NCBI GenBank assembly: GCA_048498715.1
Contig: JBEHXL010000006.1
Coordinates: 45,272 to 109,271 of the forward strand
DNA: 64,000 nucleotides
DNA from: Actinomycetota bacterium
GTDB lineage: Bacteria; Actinomycetota; Acidimicrobiia; Acidimicrobiales; JACCXE01
Direction of reading: 5' to 3'
A model generated the notes under the pieces. The model was not told the origin of the DNA. It did no database searches and was given only the letters and a program-made list of their open reading frames with translations. The stretch's first letter is position 1. Every line of letters starts with the position of its first letter. The translations under genes and the position numbers were made by a program. This document shows positions 8,909-14,348 of the stretch, in pieces.

Positions 8909-9589
8909 ATGGCTACGTTCCTGTGTCTGCACGGCGCCGGCGGCCGAGCCGCCAATTGGCACTACGTCGGCGAGGAACTGCGGCGCGCCGGACACGACGT
9001 CGTGGCCGTCGATCTCCCCTGCGATCAGGAAGTCGGCCTCGATGCCTACGTCGATGCCGCAGTTGATGCACTCGGCAAACCGCCCGATGACCTCGTCGTG
9101 CTCGCGCAGTCGCTTGCCGGTCTCATCGCTCCTCTCGTCTGCGATCGGGTGCGCGTGACCCACCTGGTGCTGCTCGCGGCGATGGTGCCGAGTCCGGGCG
9201 AGTCCGGCGGCGACTGGTGGGCCAACACCGGTCACGCCGATGCCGTCGCCGCGCAGCATCTGCCGGACGACAGCGACGCGACCCTGTTCACCCACGACGT
9301 CCCCGACGACGTGCTCGCGGCCGTCGGCGAGCCCCGCCATCAGACCTCCACGCTGTTCGCGGAGCCGTGGCCGCTCGACGCGTGGCCCGACGTGCCGACC
9401 ACGTTCGTGCTGTGCCGCGACGACCGCTTCTTTCCGGCCGAGTGGCTACGCAATCTGGTGCGCGAGCGTCTCGGGATCGAGCCCGTCGAGATCCCGGGCA
9501 GCCACTGCGCGTTCCTGAGCCAACCTCAGGCCGTGGCCAGCGCTGCGATTGCAGCGCTTCAGCGCGCTCGAAGGGATTCGAACCCCTAA
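8909..9589 (+). CDS. alpha/beta hydrolase
   Basis: ATG 8909 lies 2 nt after the upstream stop. MATFLCLHGAGG and nucleophile elbow AQSLAG. The upstream part of the 465-aa track ORF is an alternative-frame shadow. The last ~10 codons lie inside the att repeat. Confidence 0.75.
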   Translation: MATFLCLHGAGGRAANWHYVGEELRRAGHDVVAVDLPCDQEVGLDAYVDAAVDALGKPPDDLVVLAQSLAGLIAPLVCDRVRVTHLVLLAAMVPSPGESGGDWWANTGHADAVAAQHLPDDSDATLFTHDVPDDVLAAVGEPRHQTSTLFAEPWPLDAWPDVPTTFVLCRDDRFFPAEWLRNLVRERLGIEPVEIPGSHCAFLSQPQAVASAAIAALQRARRDSNP

Positions 9590-9605
9590 CCTTCTGATCC
9601 GTAGT
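9557..9605. repeat. distal att copy: 49-bp duplicate of the tRNA-Arg 3' half (not a functional tRNA)
   Basis: cttcagcgcgctcgaagggattcgaacccctaaccttctgatccgtagt is identical at 9557-9605 and 14270-14318. The two flanks diverge immediately outside the repeat. Confidence 0.9.
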
Positions 9606-9750
9606 TCTGACTTGAGCTTGCGCCGCAATTATCCACGAGTGTCCGCGATTGCGCTAGAGCCCGTCGTTGTTGGGGTTTTCGCTTCGGTCGATTGACCGCC
9701 GTTGCGCGTGAGAATCCGGGGTTCTCGCTGTTTGGTTCTCAAATTGGTTC

Positions 9751-10017
9751 TCACGGCGCAACATCGACCTCCGACGTCGCAACGAAGTCGGCGACGCGAG
9801 CTCTTTTCCTACGAGCGATCGTTCGTTGCCTAGGGGTTGCGCCTCCCCACACCCCGTAGATGATCTGGTTTGTGAGCGCGTATTCAAAGCAGTCGGTTGC
9901 AACCGTGCAGCGAGTGCACACGGCTCTTGCAGTTTCGACTTCCGCCCCGCTTTCGTCGAACCAATATTCAACAACCTGGCCCCGGCACGCAGCGCGGGAC
10001 ATCCATCTTTCATTCAT
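9751..10017 (-). CDS. WhiB-like (Wbl) Fe-S transcription factor
   Basis: 88 aa. Cys pattern C-x22-C-x2-C-x5-C (AACRG...AVCTRCTVATDC), GVWGG turn and a basic tail RRKRAR. Confidence 0.8.
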   Translation of the reverse strand: MNERWMSRAACRGQVVEYWFDESGAEVETARAVCTRCTVATDCFEYALTNQIIYGVWGGATPRQRTIARRKRARVADFVATSEVDVAP

Positions 10018-10367
10018 CGAGGTGCCTTATCTGCCGAATGAACCGGGTCCCCTGCGGCATAGCTAGCCGCATCTCGGTCGCTTAACTTTCCATGGCGTCC
10101 CGCGGCGAAGGCTGTGATTAGCTTGAACATGACGAGCGCTCGCGAACGTTTGGAGAAGACGAGCTCGTTTTACGGCTGACCAAGTGCTGACCACCGAGCA
10201 GACCGAAAGCTCAGCGCTCCCAGCCGAACCTGCCTGGGCTTGAAGAATGAGGTCCGGCTCCCGATTTCGGTCAACCCCTCGCTCCAACCTACCTTCCAAA
10301 GGGCTGCGCTTCGTTGAGCAAACTCCGGCATTCTCAAACTTTGACCGAGCTCTTGCAGGTCTGAGCC

Positions 10368-10760
10368 TCAGCCGTTCTGCTCACCCCGGTCAAGACGGTC
10401 CGTAGAATCCAATGATGACGCGGGTTCCTCGTAGCGTCGGGAAAGCGACGCAAGCAGTAAAATGCCGACGAAGCCTAAACCAAGACCGACTGCGACCGCC
10501 GGTACCCACGGCACGTATCCCTGTGCAGCGCCAAGGATCGGCATTGCGGCCAACACCATGACGTACAGCGGATACGCCCACTCGCGCCAGCTAGCGCTGA
10601 CTTCGACTGAATCGGGATCCGTGAACCCTCGGCGGGCGAGTCTCCCCGTAACCAGAACGCCCCGCCACGCGTTGCGTAAAAGCCCACCACTAAATAGGCG
10701 TCTGCCTATCCAACGCGACATCGCCGTACCCCCAGTAATAAAGCGCGAGCGCACCGGCAA
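10368..10760 (-). CDS. small 2-TM membrane protein, candidate immunity protein for the upstream RHS toxin
   Basis: 130 aa, beginning 7 nt after the toxin stop (alternative ATG at 10721). Two hydrophobic helices (YPLYVMVLAAMPILGAA; VAVGLGLGFVGILLLASL). The role is inferred from position only. Confidence 0.5.
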   Translation of the reverse strand: MPVRSRFITGGTAMSRWIGRRLFSGGLLRNAWRGVLVTGRLARRGFTDPDSVEVSASWREWAYPLYVMVLAAMPILGAAQGYVPWVPAVAVGLGLGFVGILLLASLSRRYEEPASSLDSTDRLDRGEQNG

Positions 10761-10766
10761 ATTGTC

Positions 10767-13592
10767 TCAACAGATCGCGTAATCGACCGCGGTCGCACCG
10801 ATCGTGACCTCCTGCGTGAACGCCTTAAGCGCGATGCCCGATGCTCGTGACGCAACACGGCCGCCGTTCTTGGCAAGCCGCTTTAGCGCTGCTCCTGTGA
10901 TCTTACTTGGGCCTTGACCTATCACCACCGTGTGAACAGCCCTCCAACCCTCGCCGTGTCGAGCCTGGTCAGCGGCAGTGAAGTAGCTCCTCGCGCCTAG
11001 AAAGCTCGCGGCCGGACAGATTCGCTTTCGCGCAGCCCGAGCGGCGCCCTGAAGCCCACGCCCCACCGCTTGAGCCAGGTTGAAAGCCACGCGGTACTTC
11101 GCGGGCACGTGAATACAGATGCCAAGACAACGGCCGTCGATATCAAAGCCGTTAATCGGGTCACCCGACACGTAGTCGTAGGAGTTGGCAGATCCGCCGT
11201 CTACTGGATCGCTCTCCAGGAACCTGCCGACTAAGGGGTCGTAAAGGCGAACGCCCATGCGTATGACGCCGAGGGTGGATGCAGCAGTAGATCGCTGCTG
11301 TGAGCCCAGCCATCCGTATCGGCTAGCGGGCGTAACGCCAACGCCATATTCGTCGGCCGCAAGCGCGGCGCTCCATGCCCCATTCGCATCCGAGTTGCCG
11401 ACGATGTCTCCGTGCGCATTGGTGTGTTGATATGTGACAACGCCGTTCACGTCGATAGCCGACAAGCCGCCCCCGATTGTCACGTACGTACGGCTTCCAC
11501 CGGAGCTGCCCGAATGCGGACCGGAGTACGCAGGTGAGTCGCCGGCGTCGTCATAGCCGTAGTCCGTGTCCTGCACCAAGAATCCGGTGTCGTTGGCGTA
11601 CACCTTCCGCCTGAGGACGCGGCCACTCGGATCGAGCGTTTCGTCGATCGTGCGGGTGCCTTCGTCGATAGATGTTGCGTGGTCGTTGGCGTCGTATCCA
11701 AACGTCGCGTATGTGTCGCCGTTCGTGTACGTACCGGTCACCGTGGCTGCGCCACCGTTATAAGTCGACAATCGGATGCGATAAGTCCCCTTCGAAAGAT
11801 TCGATGCGGACAGCGTTGCCGAGTTCGAACCGTAGGTCGGCGTCGCGACCGTGGTTCCGTTGGAGTCCAACAACAGTGGCGTGACCGATGCCAAGTACTG
11901 ATACGGAAAGGACACTGTGTTCGTTCCCGAGGCCATCGAGACCTTGTCGGCTGCCGGATATCGGTAGGTCACTTTGTAGTCACCGGCTGAGGGCGCGGGC
12001 ACTGTGAAGTTGACCGTCCCGGAACTTGTTGTTGGACCACTAGCGATCAGGGCGTTGGTCACCTGGTCTCGCAGTTCCCAGGTCAAGGTGGCGTAGCCCT
12101 TCGTAGCAATGTCGGCCGCAGCCGTCGATGGTTTCCAACCCGCGATCACATGAACCGGTCCCGCGTCATCGGCGTGGAACGCGGCGAACGTTTTCGTCGT
12201 GGCCGAAATCTGCACTGGTGTAGATATGCCGTTTCCGGAACCGGACCCCAGGCTTTCGGTGGTGCGTGACCACGTGTACGACGGCACCGCAACGTTGTTG
12301 GAGTTGTTGCCGACGGTCCAGTACCAGTCGCCGCCGCTGTCCGTCTCGTACGCGCCCTGCGCGACACCGCCCGAAGCCGCCCACGTTTGAACGGTCGTGC
12401 CGCCGGGTTTGTGGAGCTCGAGGGTGACGTCGGCGTAGGAATAGAGGGCGTGGGCTTCATCGATGGTGACGTACGGCGAGCCGAAGGCACCGGCCGTGAC
12501 CCTGATCTCGTAGGAGCCTTGGGGCAGCGATGGAACCGAGATCGAACCACCGGGGACTCCCGGTGTCGTCGGAATCGTTTGTACGAGCGCTCCGCCGGAC
12601 GTGTACAGGCCTGCGGTCATCGAGTCGGTAACCGGATACGTACCGGTCAACGTCCAGGCGCAGCCTGTCGTCGTGGACTTCACGGAAGGCGTAAAGATTG
12701 TCGTTGCCGGCAACACGCCGTTCTGGGTGACGTTGTAGGTCATCGTGACGGTGTTCTTGTTCAGAGCGGTGTCCGTAGCTGCGACCTGGCTGTTGCCAAT
12801 CTTCAAGACGAGGTCGAGCTTTGGCGGCGGGCCGGCGGTGCCGACACCCTGGCAGGCGCCGAGCGACGACTTCCAGGTCAGTGTGAGTTGTATGGGCCCA
12901 TTCGCCGAAGTCGTGAATGACGGTGCGGTTACCGTCGTCGCTGCGCCGACTGTTCCGCTGGCCGAGTAGGGCTGCTGCGTGGTCGCCCAGTTCACGTTGG
13001 CGTGGAACGCTCCGGCAGCGGCGCTTGTAAACGCCTTTGTCAGGGTCGCGCCCGGGTTTAGCGAGCTCGCGTAGGTGGGCTGGTCGACGACCGCAAGGTC
13101 CTGCGGGTACGTGAACGTCGATGACAGATAGGCCGTGCTCGACGGCTTGGGCGTATCTCCAAAGGCGTACCAGTTCGGCTGCGAACGGGGGGTCAGCGAT
13201 CCCGACGACGAGCTAGTCCGCGTCGTTGCATCCGATGACCATGCGATAGTCGCGTTGACCGAACCGCCCGAGCCCACATGCATTGAGGTCTCGTGCGGCG
13301 GGTCGTTCGCCGCGAAGGCGAAGGCGTCGTTGATCGAGGCGGTCGACGATGCGGTGGGCATGCGATACGACGTGAGGTTGCCGTGCAGGTCGTAGATGTA
13401 CTCGGAACCAAAGGGCGAGGCAGTCATGTGATCGGCTCCGTCGTAGGACCACGCACCGTCGCACGAAGTTTGATTCGTGGTGCCGCAACGGTTGGAGTTG
13501 TCGTCGTACGCGTAGTAGCGATTTGACGCGCCATCCTGAACCGAGCAGGAACGCCCACGCGGGCCGCAACGGGTCGCCCTCCTGCCAGTCAA
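10767..13592 (-). CDS. 5'-truncated RHS/YD-repeat polymorphic toxin (orphan cassette) with unassigned C-terminal domain
   Basis: YD motifs (YYAYDDNSNR, YIYDLHGNL, FGYDANDH, YGYDDAGD). RHS core end VRLYDPLVGRFLESDPVDGGSANSYDYVSGDPINGFDIDG, then a 119-aa tail. The first codon of the ORF is a TTG inside integrase-derived sequence, with no signal peptide or credible start. Confidence 0.65.
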   Translation of the reverse strand: MTGRRATRCGPRGRSCSVQDGASNRYYAYDDNSNRCGTTNQTSCDGAWSYDGADHMTASPFGSEYIYDLHGNLTSYRMPTASSTASINDAFAFAANDPPHETSMHVGSGGSVNATIAWSSDATTRTSSSSGSLTPRSQPNWYAFGDTPKPSSTAYLSSTFTYPQDLAVVDQPTYASSLNPGATLTKAFTSAAAGAFHANVNWATTQQPYSASGTVGAATTVTAPSFTTSANGPIQLTLTWKSSLGACQGVGTAGPPPKLDLVLKIGNSQVAATDTALNKNTVTMTYNVTQNGVLPATTIFTPSVKSTTTGCAWTLTGTYPVTDSMTAGLYTSGGALVQTIPTTPGVPGGSISVPSLPQGSYEIRVTAGAFGSPYVTIDEAHALYSYADVTLELHKPGGTTVQTWAASGGVAQGAYETDSGGDWYWTVGNNSNNVAVPSYTWSRTTESLGSGSGNGISTPVQISATTKTFAAFHADDAGPVHVIAGWKPSTAAADIATKGYATLTWELRDQVTNALIASGPTTSSGTVNFTVPAPSAGDYKVTYRYPAADKVSMASGTNTVSFPYQYLASVTPLLLDSNGTTVATPTYGSNSATLSASNLSKGTYRIRLSTYNGGAATVTGTYTNGDTYATFGYDANDHATSIDEGTRTIDETLDPSGRVLRRKVYANDTGFLVQDTDYGYDDAGDSPAYSGPHSGSSGGSRTYVTIGGGLSAIDVNGVVTYQHTNAHGDIVGNSDANGAWSAALAADEYGVGVTPASRYGWLGSQQRSTAASTLGVIRMGVRLYDPLVGRFLESDPVDGGSANSYDYVSGDPINGFDIDGRCLGICIHVPAKYRVAFNLAQAVGRGLQGAARAARKRICPAASFLGARSYFTAADQARHGEGWRAVHTVVIGQGPSKITGAALKRLAKNGGRVASRASGIALKAFTQEVTIGATAVDYAIC

Positions 13593-14160
13593 GGAACGCG
13601 CGCGCCTCCTCAGGCGACCAGTGCCGAGGAATCGAACGCTTCGGGCGCGGACGGGGCGTCGAGGCGACCGGGCTGCGCACCACGATGCCTGACGACACGG
13701 CGAGCCTGAATGCGCCGGCGAGCGGCGCCCGAGCCAGCCGCACCGTGTTCGCCGACAATGGCTTGCCGCGCTTGCTGGCCTTGCCTTCGGTCAGCGCGCG
13801 TTGCCATGCCAGCACGACTTCCGGCGTGACATCGCGGACCCGTTTCTTGCCGAGCAGTGGCCGGACGTACGAGTCAGCCGAGTTCCGGTAGTCGAACCGG
13901 GTCTTCACCGAGAGCCGATCGTCGGCTTCGAGCCCGTCGAGGTAGAGGTCGAGCAACTCGTCGACCGTCAACGCTGAACTCGTGCGAACGGGCTGGCCGT
14001 GTTCGAGGAACTCTCGTCGAGCCCGCGATGCTGCCAACGCAGTCGTGAATCCACGCTTCGTCACCTGCACGCGACGCCTGGTCAACGGATCGGTTCCGAG
14101 CGTCGCTTTGAAGTACCAGCCACCGTTTGCGTCCTGGTAGACGCCGGCATGTTTCGGCAC
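13213..14160 (-). pseudogene. tyrosine integrase remnant (N-terminal arm-binding/SAM-like part only)
   Basis: GTG 14160. VPKHAGVYQDANGGWYFKA...RHWSPEEARAFLDWQEGDPLRPAWAFLLGSG resembles a phage integrase up to about 13541. After that the frame runs out-of-frame through RHS sequence, and no catalytic R..HxxR..Y region is present. Confidence 0.75.
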
Positions 14161-14269
14161 AGATTTGCCTTCCTGATCACCGGTTCAGGAGGCGGATGTT
14201 CTCAATCGGTTCTCACGGAGAGCCTCACGTGAATGCCGATCGCGCCCATCAAGGCGCTGAGCAGGACTT

Positions 14270-14318
14270 CTTCAGCGCGCTCGAAGGGATTCGAACCCCT
14301 AACCTTCTGATCCGTAGT
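14270..14318. repeat. proximal att copy within and just 3' of tRNA-Arg
   Basis: Identical to 9557-9605. Covers 6 nt downstream of the tRNA plus its 3' 43 nt, up to the anticodon loop. Confidence 0.9.
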
Positions 14319-14348
14319 CAGATGCTCTATCCGTTGAGCTACGAGCGC
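14276..14348 (-). tRNA. tRNA-Arg (anticodon ACG)
   Basis: Hand-folded 73 nt: GCGCTCG TA GCTC AACGGATA GAGC A TCTGA CTACGGA TCAGA AGGTT AGGGG TTCGAAT CCCTT CGAGCGC G. CCA is not encoded. Confidence 0.9.

Follow-up and report, generated by a model that had tools for sequence, protein, structure and literature searches.

A truncated RHS gene in a tRNA-Arg island of an acidimicrobial genome carries a rare candidate toxin tip beside a predicted two-helix membrane immunity gene

The window analysed here, a 64,000-nucleotide stretch of a contig from a member of the Acidimicrobiales, contains a tRNA-Arg(ACG) gene (14275..14348, minus strand; ARAGORN, Rfam tRNA 70.1 bits), which was the only RNA returned by an Rfam scan. 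The 3' half of this tRNA forms the proximal copy of a perfect 49-nt direct repeat (14270-14318), the distal copy lies at 9557..9605, and together these att copies bound a 4.7-kb island integrated at the tRNA gene. Inside the island, a tyrosine-integrase stump (13531..14160, minus strand) retains the arm-binding, SAM-like and central domains only; Pfam reports Arm-DNA-bind_4, Phage_int_SAM_3 and Phage_int_M (weak), and phrog_1 is matched (E 4e-23) over just positions 117-300 of 611. The catalytic half is absent and the reading frame decays past approximately residue 210, and since the integrase is dead the island is by now immobile. A WhiB-like regulator is carried as cargo at the distal end (9751..10017, minus strand; Pfam Whib E 1.9e-18, together with PHROG WhiB families). 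GC3 across the island is 0.63-0.65, against approximately 0.85 for host genes, indicating a foreign composition. A DNA search of same-genus genomes for the empty att site found no DNA-level synteny.

Joined to the integrase stump is a fragment of an RHS gene (10767..13592, minus strand), with the predicted junction at approximately 13541-13556. The ORF encodes 941 aa from a TTG codon (886 aa in the public gene call, P0003) and comprises a few YD repeats, approximately 540 aa of beta-sandwich-like modules, further YD repeats, the Rhs core and a tip. Similarity to RHS proteins starts at residue 13, straight after the integrase stump, and from there the fragment is collinear with a 2250-aa homologue from the same genus (in genome G008), of which it matches residues 1312-2127 with 45% identity over 827 aa. 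Upstream of the matched part the homologue carries RHS_repeat and PA14 domains, and it has no T6SS parts. The window ORF does not hold a complete YD-repeat shell, gives no Pfam RHS_repeat match at E<=1, and lacks a signal peptide as well as any N-terminal secretion or trafficking domain. From these sequence comparisons we take the RHS gene to be a remnant truncated at its 5' end, which lacks approximately 1300 N-terminal residues and represents the C-terminal 40% or so of a protein of approximately 2250 aa. Any part that served export or delivery would lie within the missing residues.

The Rhs-associated core with its self-cleavage motif (..YDPLVGRFLESDPVDGG...GDPINGFDIDG; 11133..11279, minus strand) matches TIGR03696 (Rhs_assc_core, NCBIfam) at 44.8 bits, above the cut-off of 32.5, over aa 772-820 and profile positions 26-75 of 76. 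An aspartyl self-cleavage motif, YDPLVGRFLESDP...DPINGFDIDG, can be read directly in the C-terminal part of the core, and this motif is common to the paralogue of the same genome on C10 and to homologues in G008, L008 and L010. The sequence ahead of the tip ends ...RLYDPLVGRFLESDPVDGGSANSYDYVSGDPINGFDIDGRC, and cleavage is predicted immediately ahead of R821/C822. An earlier note on this DNA had described an RHS core followed by a toxin-tip tail, and this description holds, with a tail of 121 aa (aa 821-941, nt 10770-11132). The alignment with the 2250-aa homologue ends exactly at DGRC/DGKC, beyond which the two tips are unrelated, as is the hallmark of polymorphic tips.

Homologue alignments divide the tail into two parts. 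The first is a variable, Cys-bearing leader (aa 821-855, RCLGICIHVPAKYRVAFNLAQAVGRGLQGAARAAR; 11028..11132, minus strand) that is unconserved among family members. The second is a conserved domain of approximately 85 aa (aa 856-941; 10770..11027, minus strand), the candidate toxin, delimited by phmmer, a 3-sequence profile and alignments, with the motif C-P..F[LF]xGRSY..Q..A..T..GQGP..T..K..R..ATAxDYAxC. Searches of approximately 1.8 billion representative proteins and some 500 genomes found this domain at three other loci, twice attached to an RHS core and once standing alone (L007). Two of the relatives came from exhaustive phmmer (P0004, E 6e-13 and 46-50% identity; P0007, E 8e-4 and 34% identity), and the third, the tip of an RHS protein in G027 whose locus ends at the contig edge, from the 3-sequence profile (E 1e-5). 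When 100 relatives' genomes and 400 genomes of the same order were searched with profiles, tip matches beyond G027 reached approximately E 0.005 per genome and were taken as chance. Queried with the tip region, a word-indexed collection of 5.8 billion proteins returned the window's own protein alone, and a pattern scan of genome and metagenome contigs, based on the tip alignment, produced hits of which tblastn upheld none as relatives. The source genome has no second copy of either the tip or the immunity gene described below.

The reading of the tail as belonging to no named toxin family was borne out by profile searches: Pfam, NCBIfam, PHROG and PDB sequences gave no match to it at E<=0.1 or better, and for the tip no Pfam family appeared at E<=1 and nothing relevant in NCBIfam. 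When the four members were scanned singly against Pfam, HHH_7 (E 0.022-0.26) and C19orf12 (E 0.47) fell far below cut-offs, and glutamate dehydrogenase (E 0.12) and ATP synthase subunit c (E 1.3) in PDB sequence and profile searches were likewise insignificant; all were rejected. The last 85 or so residues of the tip are, as judged by sequence, conserved as a domain whose family is very rare and unnamed, and both the tip and the immunity families are absent from all libraries searched.

The window domain is cationic (net charge +8), contains 31% Gly+Ala and is all-helical by prediction. These properties recur in all four tips, which have net charges of +7 or +8, 27-33% Gly+Ala and amphipathic segments (muH up to 0.68). 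Each tip also has an even number of Cys (4, 6, 2 and 4), and three of the four keep a Cys near both ends of the domain. Kyte-Doolittle analysis over 19 residues finds no membrane-spanning hydrophobicity in the window tip, with a maximum of 1.04 and no value >=1.6, whereas the sister RHS tips are more hydrophobic (maximum 2.50 in G008 and 2.17 in C10). The divergent G027 member has a hydrophobic Gly/Ala-rich insert within the conserved domain. Structure prediction, which the earlier note had suggested, did not help here. The AF2 model of the tip alone with the 3-sequence alignment was unusable (pLDDT 43), and co-folding with the downstream protein, as a single-chain fusion in which the TGA was read through as W, gave pLDDT 32-67 for the tip and no confident interface.

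Downstream of the tip lies the candidate immunity gene (10368..10721, minus strand), encoding 117 aa with homologues P0008 (51% identity) and P0010 (47%). It was previously read as a 130-aa protein with two hydrophobic helices, beginning 7 nt after the tip. The helices stand, but the spacing is 6 nt from the TGA of the tip to the TTG at 10760 that opens the longer frame (10368..10760, minus strand), and the homologue alignment favours the ATG at 10721, which has GGGGG 7 nt upstream. The two ORFs share one frame. The N-terminal 45 or so residues are conserved and Arg-rich (LLRNAxxGVxVTGRLxRR..SxxWRxWxYP) and are followed by a 2-TM hairpin and an RRY C-terminal flank. Both Kyte-Doolittle and AF2 place the first TM helix at approximately residues 48-67 from the ATG (10521..10580, minus strand) and the second at approximately residues 73-93 (10443..10505, minus strand). 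The 19-residue hydrophobicity maximum is 2.41, and the AF2 helical hairpin has pLDDT 78-94. With a predicted N-in/C-in topology, the outward-facing loop between the helices would comprise only some eight residues, QGYVPWVP. The protein is thus modelled as lying almost entirely within the bilayer, in line with the membrane-embedded immunity protein proposed before.

Since GC3 in the island is too flat (0.63, compared with approximately 0.85 in host genes), it was dropped as coding evidence for so small an ORF. The downstream ORF is taken to be a real gene because two independent metagenome contigs carry ORFs that are 47-51% identical to it. The 130-aa ORF retrieved nothing from the word-indexed set of 5.8 billion proteins, not even the window's own gene call. 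Patterns from the immunity alignment hit genome and metagenome contigs with no relatives upheld by tblastn, and its profile matched the 100 relatives and 400 genomes of the order at approximately E 1e-3 per genome alone, taken as chance.

The position of the ORF had led to the proposal that it is the cognate immunity gene, a proposal that would require its conservation beside homologous tips. At L007, the ORF that begins 2 nt past the stop codon of the closest tip homologue is 51% identical to the window's immunity ORF, so that the gene is indeed conserved beside a homologous tip. A 47%-identical copy without a tip lies on a metagenome contig (L032) next to another 2-TM ORF. The more distant tip variant at L008, L030 and L031 is also followed by a 2-TM ORF, which is not homologous to the window's immunity protein (hhalign probability 0.3 between the L008-type ORF and the immunity family), lacks its Arg-rich N-terminal motif and was taken as analogous. 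In these comparisons the downstream ORF shows the behaviour of a cognate immunity gene that travels with the tip family, and the linkage statistics are thin because the family numbers four tip loci only. We consider that the two form a genuine but very rare toxin/immunity pair of predicted function, because the tip has relatives at three loci and the immunity ORF is conserved beside the closest of them.

The arrangement of the domain in its relatives also bears on whether it is the toxin at all. It might instead be an accessory module (for entry, receptor binding or a pre-toxin role) or a functionless relic, with the 2-TM ORF unrelated and linked by chance. Consistent with this, the L008 domain continues into a further basic tail of approximately 35 aa, the L007 domain stands alone behind an unrelated, acidic, Cys-rich leader of 70 aa, and the element that holds the window copy has decayed. 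However, the domain is the extreme C-terminus in the window, L007 and G027, leaving no other toxin there, and a tip and 2-TM ORF that are each approximately 50% identical in two unrelated contexts, one attached to an RHS core and one standalone, make up the classic toxin/immunity pattern along with an immunity copy that has no tip. We therefore regard an accessory or relic domain as quite improbable.

Gram-positive, Sec-dependent RHS/WapA-type toxins reportedly consist of a YD-repeat body, an Rhs core, a variable tip and adjacent immunity, accompanied by orphan cassettes and orphan immunity genes. The RHS gene of the window and its relatives share this layout, spare cassettes and orphan immunity genes included. 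The window gene differs in the beta-sandwich modules among its YD repeats, in being a fragment fused to an integrase stump, and in that its tip and immunity families are uncatalogued. Among toxins with an established activity, Tse5 (RhsP1) of Pseudomonas aeruginosa is an RHS protein with a self-cleaved C-terminal tip of no predicted enzymatic function; Tse5-CT forms ion-selective pores that depolarise cells, and Tsi5, a small integral-membrane immunity protein with two predicted TM regions, is encoded beside it (PMC9637101). The core-borne tip and adjacent 2-TM candidate immunity protein of the window resemble this pair. However, Tse5 is a PAAR-like T6SS effector of Gram-negative bacteria and Tse5-CT has transmembrane and amphipathic helices (PMC9637101), whereas the window RHS protein is of actinobacterial type and truncated, with a PA14-containing homologue that is free of T6SS parts, and its tip, which has no hydrophobic span, is likened to Tse5-CT by description and not by sequence.

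A second comparison is with the ionophore toxins of contact-dependent inhibition (CDI; the CdiA-CT EC93 family), small helical C-terminal domains that dissipate the membrane potential. In these toxins a variable leader precedes a conserved helical domain at its N-terminal side, and their CdiI immunity proteins are highly polymorphic, with approximately 30% identity within a group (PMC11630599). The window tip likewise joins a variable 35-aa leader to a conserved, predicted-helical domain, and its immunity proteins are unrecognisable between variants. In contrast, CDI ionophores belong to two-partner secretion systems of Proteobacteria and are modelled as five-helix bundles able to span the membrane (PMC11630599), while Pfam, NCBIfam and PDB searches find no homology to them in the window tip, for which the helix prediction is of low confidence. 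Of the features of the pore-forming/ionophore class, the 2-TM immunity protein is present, and membrane-inserting hydrophobic helices in the tip are absent by the 19-residue Kyte-Doolittle measure.

We propose that the locus represents the 3' end, or cassette, of an RHS toxin system of the polymorphic kind, in which a self-cleaving Rhs core would release a tip of approximately 121 aa that is neutralised by a cognate immunity gene product. The tip may be a non-enzymatic, cationic helical toxin, possibly disulfide-stapled, that attacks the cytoplasmic membrane of related Actinomycetota and causes depolarisation or an ion leak. The immunity hairpin, with nearly no extracellular surface, would neutralise it in or at the bilayer, by analogy with Tsi5 acting on Tse5-CT and CdiI on CDI ionophores. 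That the tip is small, cationic, Gly/Ala-rich, predicted to be all-helical and even in Cys, and is paired with a bilayer immunity protein, points to a membrane-acting toxin. The amphipathic segments, the hydrophobic insert of the G027 member and the hydrophobic tips of the sister RHS proteins in G008 and on C10 of the source genome, the latter followed by another 2-TM ORF, lean the same way. This reading is weakened because the tip has no hydrophobic span, unlike Tse5-CT, the CDI ionophores and the G008 and C10 tips. A toxin/immunity cassette in a remnant RHS gene is, in our judgement, highly probable. The membrane mechanism, which draws on the Tse5/Tsi5 and CDI ionophore/CdiI analogies, comes close to an even call without exceeding it, and the explanation as a whole, of an RHS cassette with a rare membrane-acting tip and its immunity gene surviving as a remnant in this genome, is evenly poised.

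The invariant tip positions are mostly polar or small (R-S-Y, Q, GQGP, K, R, D-Y) and would also suit a small enzyme or binding domain. The 85-aa domain could accordingly be an enzymatic or target-binding toxin whose target, perhaps a lipid-linked precursor, a nucleic acid or a membrane protein, lies in the cytoplasm or on the inner side of the membrane, with an immunity protein that is merely membrane-tethered and neutralises through its Arg-rich N-terminal 45 residues. Such a toxin would be in keeping with the polar and small invariant motif (GRSY, Q, GQGP, K, R, ATAxDY) and the missing hydrophobic span. The soluble N-terminal segment of the immunity protein is, moreover, as conserved as its TM helices (LLRDAxxGVxVTGRLLRR..SxDWRxWxYP) and is predicted to be cytoplasmic on the basis of the positive-inside rule. 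However, searches of Pfam, NCBIfam and PDB sequences matched none of the four members to a nuclease, deaminase, ART, peptidase or Ntox/Tox family, and 85 predicted-helical residues with 30% Gly+Ala are few for an enzyme. The even Cys counts and the Cys at the domain ends argue for extracytoplasmic folding, and the L008 variant has, once more, a 2-TM partner, which is non-homologous and devoid of the Arg-rich motif. An intracellular target of this kind, like an enzymatic or binding activity itself, seems rather unlikely to us, and we continue to prefer a toxin that acts at or in the membrane.

A more specific form of the membrane reading can be considered, in which the 85-aa domain would be the first of a new class of Actinomycetota RHS payload, a small, strongly cationic, disulfide-stapled helical domain without TM segments that kills monoderm cells from outside through membrane perturbation and is blocked within the bilayer by the nearly unexposed hairpin. 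We think this version unlikely as it stands. It would place the tip nearer to a bacteriocin or saposin-like peptide than to a pore-forming toxin, and, if true, Sec-exported Gram-positive RHS toxins could act without injection or import machinery. To our knowledge, most Actinomycetota RHS tips are uncharacterised, and no route has been described that takes Sec-exported RHS toxins to their targets in monoderm cells. Membrane action without a hydrophobic span would extend the known repertoire of membrane-targeting effectors; failing that, the window tip is one more polymorphic toxin tip in a large catalogue. The cassette is a familiar kind of bacterial weapon with an uncatalogued payload. It defines a compact predicted toxin/immunity pair in which both the 85-aa domain and the 117-aa 2-TM protein have clear motifs, and offers three independent relatives for comparison, including a natural standalone tip and a tip-less immunity copy.

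The toxin is probably not deployable in the source genome because the RHS gene is a remnant without its N-terminal export/delivery part and is fused to the integrase stump. Toxin export would have been lost here with the N-terminal part and the complete shell and, since the toxin would be unexportable, the module may persist as a decaying spare cassette whose remaining immunity gene could still protect against relatives deploying the same tip. The core cleavage motif and the tip/immunity cassette are intact despite the loss of the 5' 60% of the gene, and they sit inside a bounded mobile island. Such an arrangement could be an addiction (toxin-antitoxin-like) module, in which an internally initiated RHS fragment cleaves itself in the cytoplasm, the membrane immunity protein restrains the tip and loss of the island is penalised. 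We find this very improbable indeed: no promoter-like or start signal was seen for the fragment in a promoter and terminator scan, itself uninformative; the integrase is dead and the island already fixed; the tip, with its even number of Cys, more probably folds outside the cytoplasm; and the literature examined offered no precedent. As a decaying spare, the dead cassette illustrates how tRNA-integrated islands carry and erode such modules.

The minus-strand RHS ORF at 10767..13592 encodes 941 amino acids from a TTG start (886 in the public gene call, P0003). Residues 772–820 match the NCBIfam model TIGR03696 (Rhs_assc_core) with 44.8 bits, the cut-off being 32.5 bits, and reading of the sequence places the end of the RHS part at RLYDPLVGRFLESDPVDGGSANSYDYVSGDPINGFDIDGRC. 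The tail that follows, 121 residues counted from R821 (nt 10770–11132, minus strand), gave no match when scanned against Pfam, NCBIfam and PHROGs, and searches of PDB sequences with the single tail and with its profile were negative too. The next ORF (10368..10760, minus strand, 130 amino acids from TTG) has, by hydropathy, two strongly hydrophobic helices, which AF2 modelled as a transmembrane hairpin with a pLDDT of 78–94. These results confirm the observation in the earlier note that a tip without an assignable toxin family stands behind the RHS core and is followed by an ORF with two hydrophobic helices.

The locus is an ordinary example of a polymorphic RHS toxin cassette. The ORF is collinear with residues 1312–2127 of a 2250-residue RHS protein from the same genus (45% identity), and the alignment ends exactly at DGRC/DGKC, beyond which the two tips are unrelated; by alignment, this is the signature of polymorphic tips. 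Between the YD repeats, residues ~100–640 (window 11700–13300) form ~540 amino acids of Ser/Thr/Gly-rich, beta-sandwich-like modules with weak matches to Por_Secre_tail, STIV turret and Y_Y_Y domains, and since this region is ~45% identical in the 2250-residue homologue it is a lineage feature rather than decay. Upstream of the aligned part the homologue carries PA14 domains and RHS repeats. As the alignment starts only at residue 1312, the window ORF lacks ~1300 residues of the N-terminus and with them any part that would serve export or delivery, so the toxin would most likely not be deployable in this genome. The cleavage motif, tip and immunity gene are all intact despite this loss. Because the ORF has a core and a variable tip with adjacent immunity gene, but neither the full shell nor a delivery part at its N-terminus, we class it as a spare cassette or RHS remnant rather than a functional RHS toxin.

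The cassette lies in a 4.7-kb island (window 9557–14348) bracketed by a 49-nt perfect direct repeat (9557–9605 and 14270–14318) that copies the 3' half of tRNA-Arg(ACG), located at 14275–14348. Its G+C content is 0.58–0.63 compared with 0.65–0.70 in the flanks, and it comprises, in order, an integrase stump, the RHS fragment, the tip, the immunity gene, a ~350-nt stretch lacking any convincing ORF, and a WhiB-like gene. Only the N-terminal ~210 residues of the tyrosine integrase are present beside the tRNA: at ~13541–13556 integrase similarity is lost after about residue 210, and from residue 13 of the RHS ORF, which is in a different frame, the sequence resembles RHS proteins. Judged from these similarities, the two genes were fused cleanly at this junction, with loss of the integrase's catalytic half and ~1300 RHS residues. 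The tip and immunity gene have a GC3 of 0.63–0.65 versus ~0.85 in host genes, which fits a foreign origin.

When 1.84 billion representative proteins were searched exhaustively by phmmer with the tail as query, two real relatives emerged; the two remaining matches were rejected as repetitive artefacts. P0004 is a 158-residue metagenome protein whose last 90 residues are 46–50% identical to the tail, and P0007 is a 467-residue RHS-core fragment with a tail of 34% identity. A three-sequence profile recovered a fourth, more divergent member (E 1e-5) behind an RHS core in G027, a genome of the same order; this tip contains a Gly/Ala-rich hydrophobic insert, and its locus reaches the contig edge. 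Alignments place the conserved unit in the last ~85 residues (C-P..F[LF]xGRSY..Q..A..T..GQGP..T..K..R..ATAxDYAxC), the 35 residues between it and the cleavage motif being variable. No further relatives were found in pattern scans of genome and metagenome contig collections or in 400 genomes of the order, the window's own genome holds no second copy, and Pfam has no matching family for any of the four members. The tips are, on this comparison, a real, unnamed and very rare family; the evidence comes from four loci with a tip and three with an immunity gene, most of them on short metagenome contigs (58–64% G+C).

The earlier note would have given up the pairing had the downstream ORF not been conserved beside homologous tips; in L007, the metagenome contig of P0004, an ORF starting 2 nt past the P0004 stop is 51% identical to the window immunity ORF, and the pair thus survives this check. 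A profile search added P0010 (47% identity), whose contig (L032) has no tip anywhere, the pattern expected of an orphan immunity gene; it directly follows an unrelated 151-residue ORF with two transmembrane helices (L032:635-1451), and the two may form a small array of immunity genes. The P0007-type tip occurs in three samples (L008, L030 and L031) and is also followed by an ORF with two transmembrane helices, without detectable homology to the window family (hhalign probability 0.3); we take this ORF as an analogue, not a relative. Common to the three homologous immunity proteins are an Arg-rich N-terminal segment (LLRDAxxGVxVTGRLLRR..SxDWRxWxYP), both transmembrane helices and the RRY flank. 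Their alignment supports translation from the ATG at 10721, giving 117 amino acids, with a GGGGG run 7 nt upstream. The alternative TTG farther upstream lies 6 nt past the RHS TGA in the same frame (10758–10769), so that read-through of the TGA would fuse the RHS and immunity proteins; since the homologues indicate a start at the ATG, we regard the shared frame as coincidence. Overall, we think it probable that toxin and immunity gene form a genuine cassette.

In the mechanism proposed, the tip would act on the membrane and its partner would be almost entirely intramembrane: by the positive-inside rule both immunity termini are predicted to be cytoplasmic, so only ~8 residues would face outward. 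Membrane action is favoured by this partner and by the two-helix architecture of the non-homologous partner of a distant variant. It is favoured too by the tips themselves, all four of which are cationic (+7/+8), contain 27–33% Gly+Ala and are predicted to be helical with amphipathic stretches, by the insert in the G027 variant and by the plainly hydrophobic tips of sister RHS proteins of the lineage, among which the paralogue on contig C10 of the same genome also precedes an ORF with two transmembrane helices. However, hydropathy shows no stretch of the window tip that could span a membrane (KD19 maximum 1.04), its AF2 model is of low confidence (pLDDT 43), and its invariant positions are largely occupied by polar or small residues, a pattern that would also suit a small enzyme or binder. 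The last point speaks for an enzymatic toxin, or one with a cytoplasmic target, countered by a membrane-tethered immunity protein, which we consider rather unlikely; action on the membrane we rate at, or slightly under, an even chance. Co-folding, proposed in the earlier note, was run as a read-through fusion and yielded no trustworthy interface. On the side of membrane action, cysteine counts in the four tips are even (4, 6, 2 and 4), with one cysteine at each domain end in three of them, a pattern suggestive of disulfide bonds and of extracytoplasmic folding.

Two known systems are precedents for membrane action. The pores formed by the RHS tip Tse5-CT are ion-selective, and two transmembrane regions are predicted in Tsi5 (PMC9637101); CDI ionophores, helical bundles that carry a variable leader, pair with CdiI proteins of high polymorphism (PMC11630599). 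The window pair would work most like these, a putative likeness that does not establish membership of either family, and the window tip lacks the hydrophobic helix of the Tse5-CT/CDI ionophore type. The cassette would be notable beyond the standard RHS kind only if its tip is a membrane-active toxin without a transmembrane segment.

The closest tip homologue has no RHS core: in L007:1-560 it is a standalone 158-residue ORF with a 70-residue Cys-rich acidic leader, preceded by the end of another small transmembrane protein, and may therefore represent either an orphaned cassette or another format of delivery. The same RHS-core/tip gene from two samples (L030:~900-960 and L008:~1430-1470) differs by an in-frame YD dipeptide expansion in the core motif (ANAYDYV versus ANAYDYDYDYDYDYV), which makes the hexanucleotide repeat immediately upstream of the cleavage site polymorphic. 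Outside the window, the same genome carries another RHS gene, truncated at the contig start (G000:C10:1-2700). It shares the unusual core variant of the window gene (DPVEGGSANDYDYV..DPLNHFDLDGLC) and has a different, strongly hydrophobic tip and, after it, a different small ORF with two transmembrane helices (MRRHSSFKDELVYGF...).
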